Positions 1 through 39,689 of a stretch of DNA of 39,689 nt are shown here, piece after piece. Numbering within the stretch: position 1 is the first letter of the stretch; each line of letters opens with the position of its first letter. The stretch is from IMG/VR virus record IMGVR_UViG_3300046490_000025. One strand, 5' to 3'. This stretch comes from a virus. Both the position numbers and the translations under genes were made by a program. Below the pieces are notes generated by a model, which searched no databases, was not told the DNA's origin, and saw only the letters and a program-made list of their open reading frames with translations.

Positions 1-127
1 AAAGCCGTCTTCGCCATCCTGGCAATGGTCCACGCTGTCGCCTTTGGATAGTATAGGGTTAATCATTTGTATACTCCTGAATAATTGCATCGGCTGGTGC
101 GTATTCGTAAAACACCATTTCCCTCAC
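1..127. repeat. Terminal overlap, copy 1; identical to 39563..39689 (circular or terminally redundant genome signature)
   Basis: Direct comparison: aaagccgtcttcgccatcctgg...caccatttccctcac is present at both window ends, 127 nt, no mismatch seen. Confidence 0.9.
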
Positions 128-283
128 TTGTTCAATAGTAAACTGCATTTGAAAATTCGTCTTTACATATTCTATCTGAACAAGTGCCTCAATCAGTGGT
201 TTTGTCTTTTTTTCGTAATCAACTCTAAGCCTATTAAGTTCTTCTTCAAAATACCGTTTATGTAATTCTATCTGGTCGATCAT
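59..283 (-). CDS. Hypothetical small protein (74 aa, helical/coiled-coil composition)
   Basis: ORF track; AGAGGG SD-like sequence upstream of the ATG at 283; same strand and tight packing with neighbours. Confidence 0.55.
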   Translation of the reverse strand: MIDQIELHKRYFEEELNRLRVDYEKKTKPLIEALVQIEYVKTNFQMQFTIEQVREMVFYEYAPADAIIQEYTND

Positions 284-326
284 CTTGATACCCTCTTTTG
301 TTGTTTATACAAGTTGTTTTTAAATC

Positions 327-466
327 GACTCAAGGGTTCGGGCCGGACGCTAACCCGGCAAGCTTGCTGGCCTTACCTGGTATAAGGCCCAACCTTTCGG
401 TTTGCCGCAAGCCCCGCGCTGGTACCGCGGGCGTTCTGCGATTCCACGCCGCCGAACCCTTCAATC
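327..466. other. GC-rich structured element bounded by a 10-bp perfect (15-bp imperfect) inverted repeat; candidate ncRNA or MITE-like insert
   Basis: aagggttcgg (332..341) and ccgaaccctt (452..461) are perfect complements. Internal hairpins are gccgg/ccggc, ggcctta/taaggcc and cccgcg/cgcggg. Two 7-nt loops share CTGGTA (UACCAG on the minus strand), and there is an AACC-GAAA-GGUU tetraloop hairpin. GC content is far above both flanks. Confidence 0.5.
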
Positions 467-781
467 AATCGGTGCAATCCAACGGCGTTTGGGAAAAACG
501 AACTGCCTGTAAAGTTCATCTGTTTTGTCCCTATGCACTTCGTATTTGTCGGCAATCTCGCCGCGTTCTACCTTAGTTTTAAACTCCTTTTCCTGCCTGT
601 ATTTGTTGCACTTCAGGCAGACTACCACGCCGCCTTTTTTGGATGATGCGTACCTTTCCGCCGCTTCCACCATGCCATCCGAGAATGCCGAACGTGGAAG
701 GTAAACCGACTCACCGGCCATTACGCTGCACATCCCGCAGCGCACAAGGCCGGTTTCGTTGATGTAGGTTACTTTTTTCAT
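461..781 (-). CDS. Hypothetical protein with CxxC...CxxC zinc-ribbon-like motif (106 aa)
   Basis: ORF track; RCGMC and CLKC pairs in the translation; 4-nt overlap with the upstream gene stop. Confidence 0.55.
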   Translation of the reverse strand: MKKVTYINETGLVRCGMCSVMAGESVYLPRSAFSDGMVEAAERYASSKKGGVVVCLKCNKYRQEKEFKTKVERGEIADKYEVHRDKTDELYRQFVFPKRRWIAPID

Positions 782-1548
782 ATCCGGTCATGGGTTTGAT
801 CGTAGTCGCATGATGTTGACATCCTCCGCACTATCTCATCCCGGTACTTGATCGCCATTTCCAGCCTGGATATGAGTTTGGCTATGTCTTCGGAGTTCGC
901 TTCTATAAGGGCTATGTGTAGCCGGTGCGCGGGGTTTTTGAAGCGGTCGTCCCATGAGACAAAATGCCAATGCGGTGCGCCGGTTATCAGGCACAAGGAT
1001 TGGACTTGCCAGTAGTAGTCTGGCGCAATGGACTTCAAACTTTCCGCATCGTAAATACCCATATAATCAACATGAGTAGCAGAATTTGGAGCCTTCACTT
1101 CCACACCTGAATTTTCGGATGGTATCAGGCAATCCGGCGACCCGCCAAAGTCCGGCCCAAGCTCTAGGAATTTCTGGTTTAACCCGTAGTCAGTGCATAC
1201 CAGACCTGTCCTTTCCATGAACGCATCCAATGCCGGTACTTCCTGCTCCAATCCACGCGACATGGCTGGGCTTGTATACCCTTCGTCTGTTTGCGGTAGG
1301 CAAAGCCGCTGGATTGCAACATCTTTGATGTAGGTCTTCGCCCCCGCGCTAAGTTCACCGACCACCTTGCCGTTGGTCATCAGCTTGTGGGCATTACTGG
1401 CAGTAAAGTGCGCCCACCTGGCCCTTAGCCAAGAATTTCTTATTTCCTCAGAAGTTTGTATTTTCTCCCCAACTGTTGCAGTATAAAGAGCCGGTGTTTC
1501 CGATTCTATGTTGAATGTGTCAAAAAGGTTTTTTGTTAAATCGTTCAT
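778..1548 (-). CDS. YqaJ-like (lambda Exo-type, PD-(D/E)XK) recombination exonuclease
   Basis: Translation has WLRARWAHFTASNAHKLM, SRGLEQE, GGSPDCL and GVEVKAP motifs typical of YqaJ viral recombinase exonucleases. A strong AAGGAG SD lies 8 nt upstream of the ATG at 1548. Confidence 0.8.
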   Translation of the reverse strand: MNDLTKNLFDTFNIESETPALYTATVGEKIQTSEEIRNSWLRARWAHFTASNAHKLMTNGKVVGELSAGAKTYIKDVAIQRLCLPQTDEGYTSPAMSRGLEQEVPALDAFMERTGLVCTDYGLNQKFLELGPDFGGSPDCLIPSENSGVEVKAPNSATHVDYMGIYDAESLKSIAPDYYWQVQSLCLITGAPHWHFVSWDDRFKNPAHRLHIALIEANSEDIAKLISRLEMAIKYRDEIVRRMSTSCDYDQTHDRI

Positions 1549-2255
1549 TCGCTGTCTCCTTTGAAGATGTCTAGTTGGTTTTTGTGTAGTTCTTGTTTTT
1601 TAGATACAAAATAATTATTATGTGAAATTTTCATTTTATTTCTAAATTCATTATCATTCCATAAATCCTTAGTTATTTGTTTTCTTCTTTCTAATAGAAT
1701 AGGATTAGACTGTGCTATTTTGTGGGCACAATTCATTCTTTTTCTCATTTCAGTGTCTTTCATTGCTTCCTTAGTAGACTCTCCAACTTTCTTCTTTAAT
1801 TCAGGATTGGAATATGCTTTTTTTATTGAATCTATAACCTTAGATTTATAATCAATATTACCCCATCTTTCTTTTGAAGATAAAGATACTTTACCCTTTG
1901 TAATTGGATTGTTAAGAGATTTTTTAAGTCTTTCAACTTGTTCATTAGTATATTTATATCCGCTAGTACCTTCACCGCCATTTGTCAAGTTAGCCAGTTT
2001 TACACCCATCCTCCTTAACACTTCTATCATTTCAACTTCAAGCATAAGAGCGTGACTTTCATCTTTGCATGGTAAAACCCTGATTATGATATTTTCCGCA
2101 CCATACTTTTTTATTATATTTAAGTGATAATGTTTTCTTTGGCTTTGTGATAAGTTATATGCCCTATCATATTTACCCTTACCGACATAGAAAATACCAT
2201 GCACGTCTGTAGTGCCGGGTCTTGCATGGGTGTAAACGTAGAATTGTGTTGCCAT
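1545..2255 (-). CDS. GIY-YIG homing endonuclease with NUMOD3-like C-terminal DNA-binding repeats
   Basis: FYVYTH...GIFYVGKGKYDR...NLTNGGEG (GIY-YIG core), then repeated NPxxxxK(V/I)xxSxKExW-type modules. Strongly AT-rich compared with its neighbours. I place the start at the ATG at 2255; the track start at 2267 is TTG. Confidence 0.8.
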   Translation of the reverse strand: MATQFYVYTHARPGTTDVHGIFYVGKGKYDRAYNLSQSQRKHYHLNIIKKYGAENIIIRVLPCKDESHALMLEVEMIEVLRRMGVKLANLTNGGEGTSGYKYTNEQVERLKKSLNNPITKGKVSLSSKERWGNIDYKSKVIDSIKKAYSNPELKKKVGESTKEAMKDTEMRKRMNCAHKIAQSNPILLERRKQITKDLWNDNEFRNKMKISHNNYFVSKKQELHKNQLDIFKGDSE

Positions 2256-2364
2256 TTGAGTATCCAAGTAGTGTTATTTATCCATGGAAAGGTGATGCGA
2301 ACACTGGGCTGGATAAGACCCACCAAGATCATGACTCTTGGATTGTGTTCGCATGTACATTATA

Positions 2365-2517
2365 TCACATTTTCAATCTCAACTCGGCCCGCACATCCGC
2401 CGCCGTAGGTATCTTCGGACCGACCTCGGCCATATAGAGTGCTGGCATCTCGCTGTTGACCATGCCCGCCATAAATGACTCGCTCAAGTTGGTTGTTTCT
2501 TGTGTTGGTTTGTCCAT
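2365..2517 (-). pseudogene. Orphaned 5-prime fragment (50 codons) of the resident exonuclease gene, cut off by the GIY-YIG cassette
   Basis: My translation is MDKPTQETTNLSESFMAGMVNSEMPALYMAEVGPKIPTAADVRAELRLKM. Residues SEMPALYMAEVGPKIPTAADVR align with SETPALYTATVGEKIQTSEEIR of the 778..1548 ORF (14 of 22 identical). It starts directly after the stop of the upstream gene (TAGATG). Confidence 0.6.
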
Positions 2518-2724
2518 CTATAATCTCCGAGCTTTCAGACCTAGCAAAATCAAAGTATCGACAAGTACATCCGCAGGGTGTTTTTCGTTGAAATTGAATG
2601 CTTCATCAGAATCATCATTTCCGTCGATATAGGCATATACCTGGTCGTTGTCAACCCATACAGTACCAACAAACTCGCCAGAGTTTGCGGCTTGCACAAT
2701 TTCTTCAATAGATTTGTAAAGCAT
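2518..2724 (-). CDS. Hypothetical protein (68 aa, acidic)
   Basis: ORF track; same strand and tightly packed. Confidence 0.55.
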   Translation of the reverse strand: MLYKSIEEIVQAANSGEFVGTVWVDNDQVYAYIDGNDDSDEAFNFNEKHPADVLVDTLILLGLKARRL

Positions 2725-2829
2725 ATTGATTGAATCCCGTTTTTTGAGTTAATCCCGTGGTGGACTCTCGGGCTGGCTGGGATTAGGCCACAGGGTTTAT
2801 AACGTCCTGCTTGTCCGAGAGTGGTTGGT

Positions 2830-2838
2830 ATTATACCA
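2830..2838 (-). promoter_or_regulatory. Extended -10 element (TGGTATAAT) directly after the stop of 2839..3321
   Basis: The reverse complement of ...attatacca reads TGGTATAAT. No good -35. It is followed by an 8-bp closed stem (2764..2771 / 2815..2822). Confidence 0.25.
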
Positions 2839-3321
2839 TTACTGGCTTGATACTATCAAAGGCAATATGTCGAAGACCTTGCTTTTAAAGGCGTTCGTGC
2901 TGTTCTTCTTTTCGCCCCTGTAGATTATGACAACAGGTGTCAACCTGCTTGCGGGTATTATCTCGCCGCGCTGGATTGCATCCTTGACGTTTGCCACCAG
3001 TATCCGGCTGGCATTAAACAGCCGCCTTATTGCCCCGTCTTCTGTCTGAGCGACAAACAAGACGGATTCCAAATCCTTCAATTCGCCGCTCTCCATATCG
3101 GGCATGGTGACAAACCCGATACCCAAAACCCAACCGCGTATGGACTCGCCAACCTCAAGCGGTTGCCAATAGGTTATGTTCATCGGTATCGGAGCCGACT
3201 TAGCCACTGCCAGCGATGGGAGTTCAGCCCCGCCGTGGAGTGCGCTCCCCGCTATCTGCTCGGGGGTGAACCTTGCGGCCTGTGCCGTTGGTGCCTCTGT
3301 TTTTGCTATTTCGTTTTTCAT
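2839..3321 (-). CDS. Hypothetical protein (160 aa)
   Basis: ORF track; sits in the recombination/early block. Confidence 0.6.
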   Translation of the reverse strand: MKNEIAKTEAPTAQAARFTPEQIAGSALHGGAELPSLAVAKSAPIPMNITYWQPLEVGESIRGWVLGIGFVTMPDMESGELKDLESVLFVAQTEDGAIRRLFNASRILVANVKDAIQRGEIIPASRLTPVVIIYRGEKKNSTNAFKSKVFDILPLIVSSQ

Positions 3322-3366
3322 CTTCGTTGTTTCCCATGTGAAAGGGCATCCCTGCCCGTGGTTGGT

Positions 3367-4452
3367 TTATTTGTTAATTTTAAGTTCAAGTTCAACAGCA
3401 AGGTCGCCCCTGCCCATATGGTATGCAAGCATGAGTTTGTTTTCGATGGGAGTGTCCTTTGCCTGAATCTCTGCCAGACGTTGCCTTAAATTCGCCATCC
3501 GTTGCCTTAAATTCTCGTTCCGCTCGGCTTGCGCCTTGGCATCGGCTTTCGCCTTGGCCTCGGATTCCTGCCTTGCCTGGAGGTTCTCGGCTTCAATCCG
3601 TGCGGCCTCGTCACGTTGGGCCTTGAGTTCGTTTTTGTACTTTTCACAATCCAGCCTCATGCGCTCGGCATCTGCTTCCCGTTGCGCTTGGAGTTCAGCG
3701 TCCTGCTTTGCCCGCTCTGCCTGTAGCCGTTCGCGCTCGGCCCGCGCTTCATCTTCGGCCTTGGCGCGTTCCGCCTGTTCGGCTTGCAGCTTGGCGAGTT
3801 CGGCCCGGTCGGCTTCAATTTGCGCCTGTTGCTCGGCTTGGATTCGCGCCAGCTCCACGCGCTCTGCCTCAAGCCGCGCCTGTTCCTGTTCGTGCGCGAT
3901 TGCCTTGCCGAGCATGGTTTCCATCGTCGCCACGCACTCTGCTTGCGCCTGTTTCGCCATGCCCGCGTAAAGGCCGAAACTTTCAATATCATCAATGTCG
4001 AACGCCATGGTTTCAAGTTCCTCGCTGATTCTAGCCGACGAACACCCGATGAACCGGGAAGGCCAATTCCTGATTTCCGCTATCCGCTTCTGTATTTCAT
4101 CCGCCGCCGCCCGCTCGGCTTCCTCCTTCGCCTTGCGCTCGGCTTCCTTGCGGGCTTCCTCCGCTTTGATCTGCGAGTCGATGGGGTCTTCCAGTTCCTC
4201 AAGCGCAAGGGTGATGCGCTTTGCCTCTCCGTCAATCAAACGGCCCTTTTCCAGCACATCGGCCTTGAGTTCCTTCCTCAACTTTTCAAGATCGGTGCGG
4301 TATCCCCTGATTTCGGCCCGCGCTGCCTTGGCATCAGCCATGCCCTTGGTATTGTCCACCTGGAAGACCACGCCCTTGTAACGCCCGCCAAGTTCCGCCA
4401 ATGCCGCCGCCGTTGGCCTGTATTCGATTATCTGTAGTTCGTTTTTGACCAT
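3367..4452 (-). CDS. Coiled-coil protein (361 aa), possibly DUF1351-like
   Basis: The N-terminal region is globular. The centre and C-terminal part are a long E/A/R/K/Q-rich heptad-like tract (AERAKAEDEARAERERLQAERAKQDAELQAQREADAER). The family call is recognition only. Confidence 0.6.
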   Translation of the reverse strand: MVKNELQIIEYRPTAAALAELGGRYKGVVFQVDNTKGMADAKAARAEIRGYRTDLEKLRKELKADVLEKGRLIDGEAKRITLALEELEDPIDSQIKAEEARKEAERKAKEEAERAAADEIQKRIAEIRNWPSRFIGCSSARISEELETMAFDIDDIESFGLYAGMAKQAQAECVATMETMLGKAIAHEQEQARLEAERVELARIQAEQQAQIEADRAELAKLQAEQAERAKAEDEARAERERLQAERAKQDAELQAQREADAERMRLDCEKYKNELKAQRDEAARIEAENLQARQESEAKAKADAKAQAERNENLRQRMANLRQRLAEIQAKDTPIENKLMLAYHMGRGDLAVELELKINK

Positions 4453-4474
4453 TTTGATTGTTTCCTATGTTGAT

Positions 4475-4681
4475 TTATGAAAAATAAGCCATTGACCTAA
4501 CTTCCCATAGTGCGCCAGGTATTTCCGGCCCGGTGCTTTTACAATGTGCAAAGTCCCCTATGTCTGTCAAAACAGAATTAAGCCGTTCGACTTCATCCGC
4601 CAAGTCAATCCCGCATTTTTGCATTTTGCACTTTGCCGCAAGCTGCTTTTCTTTGGCTTGCCGGATGGTTTTGGACCTCAT
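4475..4681 (-). CDS. Hypothetical protein (68 aa)
   Basis: ORF track; abuts 4682..4873. Confidence 0.45.
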   Translation of the reverse strand: MRSKTIRQAKEKQLAAKCKMQKCGIDLADEVERLNSVLTDIGDFAHCKSTGPEIPGALWEVRSMAYFS

Positions 4682-39410: not shown

Positions 39411-39652
39411 CTCTGATTGGCCCTCTCGGAAAGCATGGCATCGGCTTTGTCATACGCCATTTCTGAAATATCCTGATCTTCCCAAGAATATTTATCGGCT
39501 AAAAGCACTAAATTAGTCAAAGCACACCCAGCAAAGTAATCCCTCAAAGTCACATACTGCAAAAAGCCGTCTTCGCCATCCTGGCAATGGTCCACGCTGT
39601 CGCCTTTGGATAGTATAGGGTTAATCATTTGTATACTCCTGAATAATTGCAT
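39407..39652 (-). CDS. Hypothetical protein; the start lies inside the terminal overlap (alternative ATG at 39628)
   Basis: ORF track. Its 5-prime end is duplicated at 1..90 because of the 127-nt overlap. Confidence 0.5.
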   Translation of the reverse strand: MQLFRSIQMINPILSKGDSVDHCQDGEDGFLQYVTLRDYFAGCALTNLVLLADKYSWEDQDISEMAYDKADAMLSERANQR

Positions 39653-39689
39653 CGGCTGGTGCGTATTCGTAAAACACCATTTCCCTCAC
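39563..39689. repeat. Terminal overlap, copy 2
   Basis: Identical to 1..127. Confidence 0.9.

Follow-up and report, generated by a model that had tools for sequence, protein, structure and literature searches.

A Seg-like GIY-YIG endonuclease gene flanked by a chimeric exonuclease gene and the orphaned 5' end of the resident allele in a phage genome

The window, i.e., the whole 39,689-nt stretch of viral DNA analyzed here (IMG/VR record IMGVR_UViG_3300046490_000025), contains a locus whose genes are all on the minus strand (Table 1). Read in that direction, a 50-aa orphan ORF (2365..2517) is followed by a promoter-like site, a structured leader, a GIY-YIG endonuclease gene and a complete exonuclease ORF of 256 aa (778..1548). 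The orphan carries GGAG 7 nt upstream of its ATG, which stands right behind the TAG of a 68-aa ORF (2518..2724) and thus begins directly after the upstream stop, as the initial annotation had it. That annotation had also described an AT-rich stretch comprising the leader, the GIY-YIG gene and the first 37 exonuclease codons, all of which hold at their coordinates, as does the placement of the exonuclease Shine-Dalgarno sequence (AAAGGAG) within the 3' end of the endonuclease gene. There, the endonuclease stop codon (TGA, 1547-1545) overlaps the exonuclease start codon (ATG, 1548-1546) in an ATGA (1548..1545). Contigs with these proteins came from independent sources, namely assemblies from JGI and from two Logan SRA runs, and the two contigs compared as DNA (L005 and L006) were a 100% match to the window. 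An assembly artefact is ruled out, since the arrangement recurs in contigs of separate data sources. When 400-4500 was compared to a phage database by blastn, the sole match was a repetitive, Ala/Glu-rich (probably coiled-coil) coding stretch in Xanthomonas phages. Nearby, the window also shows other mosaic differences from the related locus L001: 181 nt are inserted at 306-486, and a 63-aa ORF is missing.

Table 1. Positions of features at the endonuclease-exonuclease locus, numbered on the window.
Feature	Position	Strand	Basis
Resident exonuclease 5' remnant (start codon and orphan codons 1 to ~44)	2387..2517	-	blastn, tblastn, GC
Left junction segment, origin ambiguous (final 6-7 codons of the orphan, ELRLKM, plus TGA stop)	2365..2386	-	
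Extended -10 promoter-like site TGaTATAAT, at left edge of cassette	2359..2367	-	read from sequence
Structured leader (5' UTR) of endonuclease gene	2256..2354	-	folding, L007 comparison
Seg-like GIY-YIG homing endonuclease gene (236 aa; activity predicted)	1545..2255	-	profile, fold, conserved residues
Exonuclease Shine-Dalgarno AAAGGAG, within 3' end of endonuclease gene	1556..1562	-	read from sequence
Donor-derived replacement N-terminus, codons 1-37 of current exonuclease ORF	1438..1548	-	GC3, identity
Crossover interval containing the right-hand homologous exchange	1405..1437	-	GC, identity to relatives
YqaJ-type exonuclease gene, resident part	778..1404	-	Pfam, PHROG, 88% nt identity to L001

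Base composition differed among these segments. About 950-980 nt of AT-rich DNA, of which only ~110 nt are non-coding, separate the orphan from the remaining exonuclease gene. GC content was 0.54 in the orphan, 0.41 in the leader, 0.32 in the endonuclease gene, 0.35 in the new exonuclease N-terminus and 0.52 in the remaining exonuclease gene, and the bin at 1501-2000 had the lowest GC of all bins in the 39.7-kb window. At third codon positions, the GC content (GC3) of the new N-terminus (0.30) did not differ from that of the endonuclease gene (0.25; p = 0.55), whereas it differed from those of the orphan (0.65; p = 0.002) and the exonuclease gene core (0.58; p = 0.002).

For the endonuclease, ATG 2255 (giving 236 aa) is the most likely start codon, in preference to TTG 2267. 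The protein matched PHROG 314 ("homing endonuclease"; E = 1.7e-11) and, weakly, T4 segF by tblastn (E = 4e-4); Pfam GIY-YIG models scored under their cut-offs (LEM-3_GIY-YIG, 17.7 bits vs 27), and a search of NCBIfam gave no match. The protein contains the GIY...YIG motif pair with its Tyr residues, followed by the Arg, Glu and Asn of the family: Y6-V-Y8, Y23-V-G25, R31, E73 and N89 are present and are invariant or nearly so across 41 homologues, and 14/14 family-invariant residues are retained. An AF2 model (pLDDT 91.7) showed the beta-beta-alpha-alpha-beta-alpha order of the GIY-YIG fold (E5-11, E21-27, H29-33, H42-51, E57-63, H66-82), and Foldseek against the viral library BFVD returned 138 matches at E <= 1e-3, named as GIY-YIG, Seg, NUMOD3 or intron-associated endonucleases. 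Foldseek searches of the PDB with the full model and the N-domain model gave noise (arrestins, LasR, rmsd ~12), and when the endonuclease sequence and its family profile were searched against PDB sequences, the only matches lay at E = 0.05-0.3. The C-terminal half is predicted to be all-helical, with internal repeats of period 102-108 nt, and the protein divides into a catalytic domain (~residues 1-100) and a helical repeat domain (~104-232) that is presumed to bind DNA. NUMOD3 was found in 23 of the 41 homologues; the window protein had no NUMOD3 match at E <= 0.01. These features identify it as a Seg-like GIY-YIG homing endonuclease with predicted cleavage activity.

Upstream of this gene, TGaTATAAT appears to be a promoter-like site, whose TG is overlapped by the orphan's TGA stop codon (2367-2365). 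At the equivalent place the related locus L007 has TGtTATAAT, and its homology to the cassette starts at window position 2367. The leader folds with a 10-bp closing stem (2354-2345 with 2304-2295) that encloses two hairpins and corresponds to inverted repeat I8; its minimum free energy was -29.6 kcal/mol (z = -2.3), and the leader of L007 had z = -3.4. The first ~90 nt of the leader were identical in the window and L007, with the sole two differences immediately before the ATG; the adjoining coding DNA was 75-90% identical. The fold was not shared upstream of a more distant homologue (L008). Exact-match scans for the leader in IMG/VR and JGI metagenome contigs, collections that appear to be without the source samples, gave no match.

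The exonuclease is of the YqaJ/lambda-Exo type. It matched Pfam YqaJ (PF09588; E = 9.5e-13, 49.1 bits vs a cut-off of 22, residues 40-191) and PHROG 149 ("exonuclease"), and the PD-(D/E)XK active-site residues D145, E156 and K158 (numbered on the reconstructed protein) were invariant in 12 sequences. The chimeric ORF is intact: it aligns end to end with uninterrupted homologues, its catalytic D-E-K residues and conserved N-terminal motif are preserved, and the orphan repeats residues already there. Judging from the sequence, it is plausible that the insertion is phenotypically silent, as first proposed. The two parts of the gene have different parentage. Over the new N-terminus, the protein was 47-57% identical to any sampled allele (57% aa to L001) and the DNA ~50-60% identical to each of them, and its start region (ACAGCGAATGAAC) matched the allele start regions of L004 and L007. 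Identity to L001, L004 and L007 climbs to ~88% only from 1404 onward. A right boundary at ~1438 had been suggested; GC does rise there, being back at 0.55 at ~1437, but the boundary can be placed only to between 1437 and 1405.

The orphan is the former 5' end of the resident exonuclease allele, because it was 81% identical in amino acids to the N-termini of the uninterrupted alleles of L001-L003, which are from related metagenomic phages (tblastn, E = 5e-19), and, as DNA, positions 963-1087 of L001 matched window 2511-2387 at 80% (blastn). Its similarity to the current exonuclease N-terminus exceeded chance (BLASTP E = 1e-7; 17/36 identical, 47%), which upholds the homology originally reported; the reported extent, residues 16-37, was too short, for orphan residues 8-43 align with exonuclease residues 5-37. 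At the DNA level, the two were ~47% identical (54/114 aligned nt). In a protein-level comparison, the closest parent allele of the orphan was P0006-like (AEWL...). The orphan has no frameshift and no internal stop, its ratio of nonsynonymous to synonymous differences (8/12) was not significantly raised over that of the gene core (11/51; p = 0.065), and it matched no family or domain in Pfam or PHROG.

On the left, alignment to the uninterrupted alleles ends at 2387, where GC also falls, in agreement with the earlier estimate that homology and high GC stop at ~2389. The junction segment, 2365..2386, gave no convincing alignment to the uninterrupted alleles or to L007 upstream of its position 396, and the origin of ~19 nt (2368..2386) is ambiguous; the segment may represent decayed exonuclease sequence, the 3' end of the donor's upstream gene, or filler. 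Comparison of the window's own cassette edges revealed no convincing target-site duplication or microhomology. Uninterrupted exonuclease alleles, which the initial annotation had suggested looking for, do occur in related phages (P0002, also P0003-P0007). Its in-frame reconstruction likewise proved sound, in that across 95% of its length the joined protein shared 89% identity with P0002 (uninterrupted, 251 aa), and L001 has 31 nt where the window has 982 nt, a net difference of exactly the 951 nt whose removal had been proposed.

Among related loci, the endonuclease gene was present in the window, L005, L007 and L176 and absent from the equivalent locus in L001-L004 and L171-L175. The nearest homologue, that of L007 and L176 (53% aa identity, with a near-identical leader), is free-standing between an upstream gene and an intact exonuclease gene. 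Because it lies just upstream of an intact gene, the native site of the endonuclease gene is intergenic. It follows that the window is an aberrant outcome, i.e., a one-sided acquisition of an intergenic endonuclease gene rather than a dedicated in-gene insertion, and that the interior of the exonuclease gene is not the cassette's normal site, which refines the initial annotation. Related phages thus show this locus in three conditions: without the endonuclease gene, with it cleanly in place, and with it aberrantly placed. In relatives the slot upstream of the exonuclease gene holds a methyltransferase, pRha/ANT genes or the endonuclease gene; in the window it holds the 68-aa ORF. The exonuclease alleles themselves are sharply divergent over their first 120-150 nt and 80-100% identical over the remainder, and with this hypervariable 5' end, recombination breakpoints lie within the gene, where a neighboring homing endonuclease gene would lead one to expect them. 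Searches of IMG/VR and metagenomes for related loci found distant exonuclease genes only (<=48% identity), with no neighboring endonuclease gene and no orphan. The collections searched contained no donor, i.e., the leader and endonuclease gene with a MNDLTKN-type exonuclease and no orphan, and a look-up of the 68-aa ORF found no endonuclease-free version of the window phage. When the new N-terminus was used to look for a donor allele, no shared words turned up.

These results are best read as intronless homing or recombination, one end having been resolved by a homologous crossover within the exonuclease gene and the other joined illegitimately. Taken as a whole, the locus is probably explained by an intergenic Seg-like gene that was copied in with a homologous right end and an illegitimate left end. 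The original proposal, that a donor of lower GC contributed the cassette together with its own exonuclease 5' end and that the resident 5' end was thereby orphaned, is supported by both identity and GC3. In this phage group, the normal place of the free-standing Seg-like GIY-YIG gene is the intergenic space just upstream of the recombination exonuclease gene, and the gene would have been copied into the window phage from a relative that is diverged and richer in AT. On the right side, homologous exchange would have been resolved within the exonuclease gene at about 1405-1437, and because of this the donor's first ~37 codons would have been co-converted and now form the start of the gene. On the left side, no homology would have been shared because the recipient has a different upstream gene, the 68-aa ORF, and the incoming DNA would have been joined illegitimately at ~codon 44 of the recipient's own exonuclease gene. 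The resulting order is an orphan remnant, followed by the promoter-like site and leader, the endonuclease gene and a complete, chimeric exonuclease that is translationally coupled to the endonuclease gene via the ATGA overlap. By analogy with T4 Seg enzymes, the event may have started with a double-strand break made by the endonuclease in the recipient exonuclease gene near the junction; one broken end could then have invaded the donor, and the other end could have taken up the newly copied strand by end-joining or via microhomology.

T4 free-standing Seg enzymes are encoded by intergenic genes, target the adjacent gene and cause co-conversion of flanking DNA, with known pairs being SegF/gene 56, SegG/gene 32, SegA/uvsX and SegE/uvsW (PMC2988022). 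The window endonuclease is similar in its GIY-YIG catalytic domain, followed by a tail that may be a modular DNA-binding domain, its presence or absence among relatives, its position between genes and next to a conserved gene of DNA metabolism (seen in L007 and L176), the co-conversion of flanking DNA, its weak sequence similarity to segF and its fold similarity to Seg-type proteins. In T4, however, both flanks are homologous and no target fragment is left, whereas in the window one side is illegitimate and the 5' end of the target is duplicated.

Endonuclease-independent illegitimate or modular recombination between two phages, with the endonuclease gene as passive cargo and no break made by the enzyme, is unlikely. 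Such an origin would fit the slot upstream of the exonuclease gene as a general cargo hot-spot (methyltransferases of several sizes, pRha/ANT, the 68-aa ORF, the endonuclease) and the further mosaic differences from L001 close by (the 181-nt insertion and missing 63-aa ORF). However, the junction is in the gene adjoining the endonuclease gene, which is also where cleavage by T4 Seg enzymes falls (PMC2988022), the donor tract is short, centered on the endonuclease gene and uniform with it in composition, and the endonuclease keeps all invariant catalytic residues.

It is very unlikely that the orphan peptide has been kept for a function of its own, whether as an N-terminal module that binds an exonuclease partner or as recombination homology. 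A possible role as recombination substrates has been suggested by Barth et al. for the gene fragments of HEG-islands (PMC10055350), and the orphan does retain a Shine-Dalgarno sequence, an ATG and an open frame, with no significant rise in its nonsynonymous/synonymous ratio. Yet a single haplotype was sampled (100% identical in L005), the orphan lacks family matches, its tail and stop codon look accidental, and the full-length exonuclease already has an equivalent N-terminus.

Phage group I introns often house GIY-YIG endonuclease genes, which are frequent there, and this one has a structured leader and lies in a segment whose net length of 951 nt preserves the reading frame. Nevertheless, a mobile group I (or group II) intron spliced out from ~2388 to 1438, with the downstream ATG and Shine-Dalgarno sequence being incidental, is extremely improbable. 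The intron reading was rejected on Rfam scans: no intron model was detected in 1200-2900 at E <= 10 with permissive filters, and the whole window gave no match at gathering thresholds. Group I introns have U before the 5' splice site and G at the intron 3' end; here, if the boundaries are set so as to keep the frame, the last base of the exon is G, not U, and that of the "intron" is A, not G, and neither a covariance-model ribozyme core (P3-P9) nor the canonical splice-site nucleotides were found. Moreover, ~110 nt of the segment and no more are non-coding, the 111 nt at its 3' end code for a sequence homologous to the upstream "exon" (E = 1e-7), which an intron leaves unexplained, and in L007 the leader and endonuclease gene lie outside any gene. 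In-situ tandem duplication of the exonuclease 5' end, with one copy diverging and the endonuclease gene inserted between them later, would account for two direct repeats in one common reading frame but is scarcely credible, given that the copies are ~47% identical as DNA vs 88% for the remaining gene against relatives and 80% for the orphan to L001, and that the new copy has an endonuclease-like GC3, unlike the host gene, and a start region resembling the L004 and L007 alleles.

One-sided acquisition of the Seg-like gene also bears comparison with several other systems. In vibriophage ICP1, "HEG-islands" harbor small genes consisting of pieces of essential genes (Barth et al., NAR Genom Bioinform 2023; PMC10448857 / PMC10055350); there, as in the window, endonuclease genes lie at recombination-tract boundaries with fragments of neighboring full-length genes beside them. 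The endonuclease families and phages differ, and in the window parentage can be assigned and junctions placed to near-nucleotide precision. Genes split by endonuclease genes, i.e., Aeh1 nrdA/mobE, T4 genes 39/60 with mobA, and phage 25 gene 43 (PMC2988022), likewise have an endonuclease gene between two ORFs from one ancestral gene. Those polypeptides are complementary and both needed, whereas the window has a complete downstream ORF and an upstream fragment that is redundant, so the locus does not consist of the two complementary, required fragments of a split gene or a fractured gene with a split intein. In T6, the nuclease activity of SegB has been shown experimentally to drive local duplications, with microhomology at the repeat ends (PMC13096335). 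SegB is also a GIY-YIG Seg nuclease with a duplication adjoining its own gene, but the T6 case is a tandem amplification of identical DNA in one genome under selection, and the window is a hybrid of two alleles.

Hybrid genes made by mobile ORFs are known in fungal mitochondria, including atp6, atp9, cox2 and nad3 of Glomus (PMC3630166), and the original report of the Allomyces macrogynus atp6 hybrid gene is listed as reference 48 of that paper. As in these genes, an endonuclease ORF is associated with a foreign terminus of the target gene, joined in frame, and the displaced native terminus stays adjacent and resembles the alleles of relatives more than the inserted copy does (81% aa for the orphan vs 57% aa for the new N-terminus, both to L001). 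The polarity is reversed: in the window the N-terminus is replaced and the endonuclease is upstream, whereas in fungi the C-terminus is replaced and the endonuclease is downstream; the window endonuclease is also a separate cistron, not fused in frame, and its host is a phage. We consider it improbable that the promoter, the 90-nt invariant leader, the GIY-YIG gene and the exonuclease 5' segment form a discrete, recurrent mobile unit, with the three-way-junction leader being a new cis-regulatory RNA or a lineage-specific recognition element. Among ~176 loci, the orphan, endonuclease and new N-terminus were not observed as a recurrent unit. If such a unit existed, it would be an opposite-polarity phage counterpart of the fungal mobile ORF elements and, since it would bring a replacement 5' gene end, could enter a target ORF without killing the target.

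The event is of a known kind and involves no new mechanism, and current understanding of homing endonucleases is unchanged by it. As a clean example, the locus provides a legible record of the transfer of a free-standing homing endonuclease gene between phages, in which resident and donor segments can both be assigned and the junctions narrowed to about 20-30 nt, and it shows how chimeric genes and small orphan ORFs can arise through homing in phages. The appropriate annotation for the 50-aa ORF is gene remnant instead of hypothetical protein. The predicted target of the endonuclease is the exonuclease gene around codons 40-55, e.g., CGGGCGGCATGGTTAGAATCCAGATGGGG in L001.

Every gene in window positions 1..4500 lies on the minus strand, and within this block the locus is a three-part mosaic of resident, donor and resident DNA: an orphan ORF, which is the leftover 5' end of the resident exonuclease gene, an AT-rich cassette, and the body of the exonuclease gene (see table). 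GC content is 0.54 in the orphan, 0.41 in the leader and 0.32 in the endonuclease gene; it is still 0.35 over exonuclease codons 1-37, and then 0.52-0.55 over the remaining exonuclease gene. The lowest-GC bin in the entire window is 1501-2000, at 29%. The 256-aa protein is labelled an exonuclease in PHROGs and carries a YqaJ domain at residues 40-191 (Pfam, E=9.5e-13), and its residues 5-37 are homologous to the orphan (17/36 identical, E=1e-7).

Coordinates of features at the orphan-exonuclease locus
Feature	Window position	Strand	Remark
160-aa ORF	2839..3321	-	
Strong sigma-70-like promoter	2859..2830	-	
68-aa ORF	2518..2724	-	
Orphan ORF, 50 aa	2365..2517	-	ATG immediately after the TAG of the preceding ORF
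Extended -10-like site, TGaTATAAT	2367..2359	-	
Leader, 99 nt	2354..2256	-	
Endonuclease ORF, 236 aa	1545..2255	-	
YqaJ-type exonuclease ORF, 256 aa	778..1548	-	AAAGGAG upstream; ATG overlaps endonuclease stop (ATGA)

Using as query a reconstructed protein that joins orphan residues 1-43 to exonuclease residues 38-256, we recovered uninterrupted exonucleases, two of which have an orphan-type N-terminus (P0002, MSIKPTQEIIDLSESFMAGMVNSEMPALY..., 89% overall identity; and P0006). At the DNA level, window 2511-2387 corresponds to 963-1087 of L001, a locus of a related metagenomic phage, at 80%, and window 1404-817 to L001 1119-1706 at 88%, with 982 nt of the window opposite 31 nt of L001. The initial annotation had described this order of orphan, insert and exonuclease, and its N-terminal homology, its low-GC tract and its uninterrupted counterpart in related phages were all recovered. 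Since the window's proteins are also present in contigs assembled by JGI and in those of two Logan SRA-run assemblies, and since the two contigs whose DNA was compared (L005 and L006) match it at 100%, a chimeric assembly is excluded.

The two N-termini differ in parentage. In tblastn, L001-L003 are 81% identical to the orphan and 57% identical to the N-terminus in current use, which is ~50% identical to the related loci L004 and L007. In-situ duplication of the exonuclease 5' end would also yield two copies; their DNA, however, is only ~47% identical (54/114 aligned nt), which is too low for such an origin in a gene whose body is 88% identical to relatives, and composition contradicts it as well. 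GC3 is 0.65 in the orphan, 0.58 in the exonuclease body, 0.30 in the new N-terminus and 0.25 in the endonuclease gene; on this measure the new N-terminus is set apart from both the orphan and the body (p=0.002 for each) and does not differ from the endonuclease gene (p=0.55). Considering this composition and the low identity between alleles, the new N-terminus therefore entered from another lineage, together with the AT-rich gene. The L004 and L007 alleles share its start region, ACAGCGAATGAAC, so the donor was a relative having the same gene order.

The sole Pfam match of the 236-aa protein, to LEM-3_GIY-YIG, was below threshold, and PDB searches with it gave nothing informative. It belongs to PHROG 314, 'homing endonuclease' (E=1.7e-11), and tblastn against phage records reached T4 segF (E=4e-4) plus several annotated homing endonucleases. 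We found 58 homologues and aligned 41, 23 of which contain NUMOD3. Residues Y8, H10, F22, Y23, G25, G27, E73 and N89 are invariant in this alignment and R31 is near-invariant; the window protein has them all, in the pattern GIY...YIG/Arg/Glu/Asn. Its AlphaFold model (pLDDT 91.7) has a beta-beta-alpha-alpha-beta-alpha N-domain and a helical repeat tail, and had 138 matches in BFVD at E<=1e-3, to proteins annotated as GIY-YIG, Seg, NUMOD3 or intron-associated endonucleases. From sequence and model, the protein is classed as a Seg-like GIY-YIG homing endonuclease of predicted activity. Its C-terminal half (window 1560..1950, minus strand) contains direct repeats with a period of 102-108 nt (~34-36 aa; families D1, D3 and D5), is predicted to be all-helical and, except for a shared C-terminal KNQLDIF, cannot be aligned with the L007 homologue, which together suggest a modular, rapidly swapped DNA-binding domain. 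In SRR35913982 (L177, L006) the assembly breaks within this gene, at about residue 128-129, into 32-kb and 7.5-kb contigs; internal repeats, low coverage of AT-rich DNA or polymorphism at the locus could be the cause.

The closest endonuclease homologue, P0012 (53% aa identity), is encoded in L007 and again in L176, from another sample. In both, the gene is flanked on one side by the counterpart of the 160-aa gene and on the other by an intact exonuclease gene of 247 aa, without an orphan, and homology between window and L007 begins at window 2367, at TATAAT. The element is thus a free-standing endonuclease gene that normally occupies an intergenic slot upstream of the exonuclease gene. The earlier proposal, that a cassette from a lower-GC donor brought that donor's exonuclease 5' end, is thus supported by GC3 and identity levels and is refined in that the native endonuclease site is intergenic. 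Among ~160 more distant exonuclease loci (IMG/VR and metagenomes), neither the orphan nor this endonuclease gene was found. What occupies the slot from the 160-aa gene to the exonuclease gene varies from relative to relative (window 2518..2830; L001, L004, L171, L172, L007): N6/N4 methyltransferases of 283-568 aa, pRha and ANT genes, the endonuclease gene or a 68-aa ORF. On the upstream side of this cargo gene, 37 nt of the window (2730..2766) are 97% identical to L004.

Identity between window and L007 is ~98% in the leader, ~90% in the first 100 nt of the endonuclease gene and 75-80% in the catalytic domain, and is lost in the C-terminal half save for the last 23 nt, which encode KNQLDIF. 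The leader (L007 408..506) is nearly invariant, its first ~90 nt being identical and its only two differences lying just before the ATG, unlike the first 27 endonuclease codons, which already have 6 synonymous changes. It lies just downstream of the extended -10 site and folds as a three-way junction (z-scores of -2.3 for the window and -3.4 for L007); it had no Rfam match, and the fold is absent from L008, the locus of a more distant homologue. The leader may be a cis-regulatory RNA, an operator or merely a recent conversion tract.

Composition switches at ~1437 and identity to relatives is ~88% from 1404, placing the right boundary, a homologous exchange, within 1405-1437. The left boundary cannot be homologous because nothing ahead of the cassette in an L007-type donor corresponds to the recipient's upstream DNA, i.e., the 68-aa ORF and the recipient's own exonuclease 5' end. 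Here, resident homology stops at 2387 and cassette homology begins at 2367; the intervening 19 nt, CGAGTTGAGATTGAAAATG, are of uncertain origin. T4 Seg enzymes, encoded by intergenic genes, cut an adjacent gene, with co-conversion of flanking markers (PMC2988022). By analogy, the enzyme probably made a break near codon 44 of the exonuclease gene in the recipient; the downstream break end would have invaded the donor's exonuclease gene, copying would have run leftward through the donor's 5' end, endonuclease gene and promoter, and the upstream break end would have captured the new strand without homology. Experimentally, SegB nuclease activity has been found to give local duplications with microhomology at the repeat ends (PMC13096335). 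The stretch encoding RAAWLESRWG is near-identical in L001, L004 and L007, but the allele linked to the endonuclease in the window has diverged strongly there, as would fit a target site from which the linked allele has escaped; this is only suggestive. The main residual uncertainty is illegitimate recombination without endonuclease involvement, which we consider unlikely.

Among alleles, the exonuclease gene is hypervariable over its first 120-150 nt. L004 is without the endonuclease gene and L007 is with it. Since the 5' half of their exonuclease genes (L004 1108..1848, L007 1132..1875) is 93-100% identical and the 3' half only 53-80%, a recombination breakpoint lies mid-gene, and L004 either lost the endonuclease gene or received a co-converted flank without it. 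Where an endonuclease gene delimits genetic exchange, patterns of this kind are to be expected (PMC10448857). A group I or II intron was rejected because too little of the RNA is non-coding, because the nucleotides at its boundaries would be non-canonical and because the putative intron contains homology to the exon; covariance models also gave no match, even at E<=10. A split gene or split intein was rejected since no recognisable domain is present in the orphan and the ORF downstream of it is complete.

The chimeric exonuclease is complete, retaining the D-E-K active site and the conserved PALY..VG.KI.T motif near its N-terminus, and is translationally coupled to the endonuclease gene. Since the orphan retains a Shine-Dalgarno sequence and ATG, it is probably still translated as a 50-aa peptide. 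Its nonsynonymous/synonymous ratio versus L001 (8/12) is higher than that of the exonuclease body (11/51), although not significantly (p=0.065). The two N-terminal copies are too diverged for recombination between them, so the arrangement is stabilised. The window exonuclease also has a unique C-terminal extension, STSCDYDQTHDRI (778..820, minus strand; cf. L001 1706..1897), and a 63-70-aa ORF found between the exonuclease gene and a 106-aa gene in L001-L004 is absent.

The closest formal precedent is a fungal mitochondrial mobile ORF element that carries a foreign C-terminal segment of the gene with it on insertion, displacing the native equivalent (PMC3630166, citing the original report on Allomyces macrogynus atp6). 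The window case differs in its opposite polarity, phage setting and separate endonuclease cistron. Among phages, it resembles the HEG-islands of ICP1, which contain small genes corresponding to fragments of neighbouring essential genes (Barth et al.; PMC10448857/PMC10055350). Alongside these precedents, the present locus is a well-resolved further example.

Elsewhere in the genome, compared with L001 and L004, the window has a GC-rich insertion of 181 nt (306..486, minus strand) in place of the final ~8 codons of the 106-aa gene (461..781). This insertion is predicted to fold into a multibranch structure of very high stability (-76.6 kcal/mol, z=-4.0, 0/200 shuffles as stable), and had no match in Rfam or the phage database and no exact match in IMG/VR; possible identities are a miniature mobile element and a gene for a small structured RNA. 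Finally, window 1..127 is identical to 39563..39689, and L005 and L006 span the window ends. The window is therefore a whole phage genome of ~39,562 bp, either circular or circularly permuted, and its repeated ends are an assembly overlap of k-mer size.
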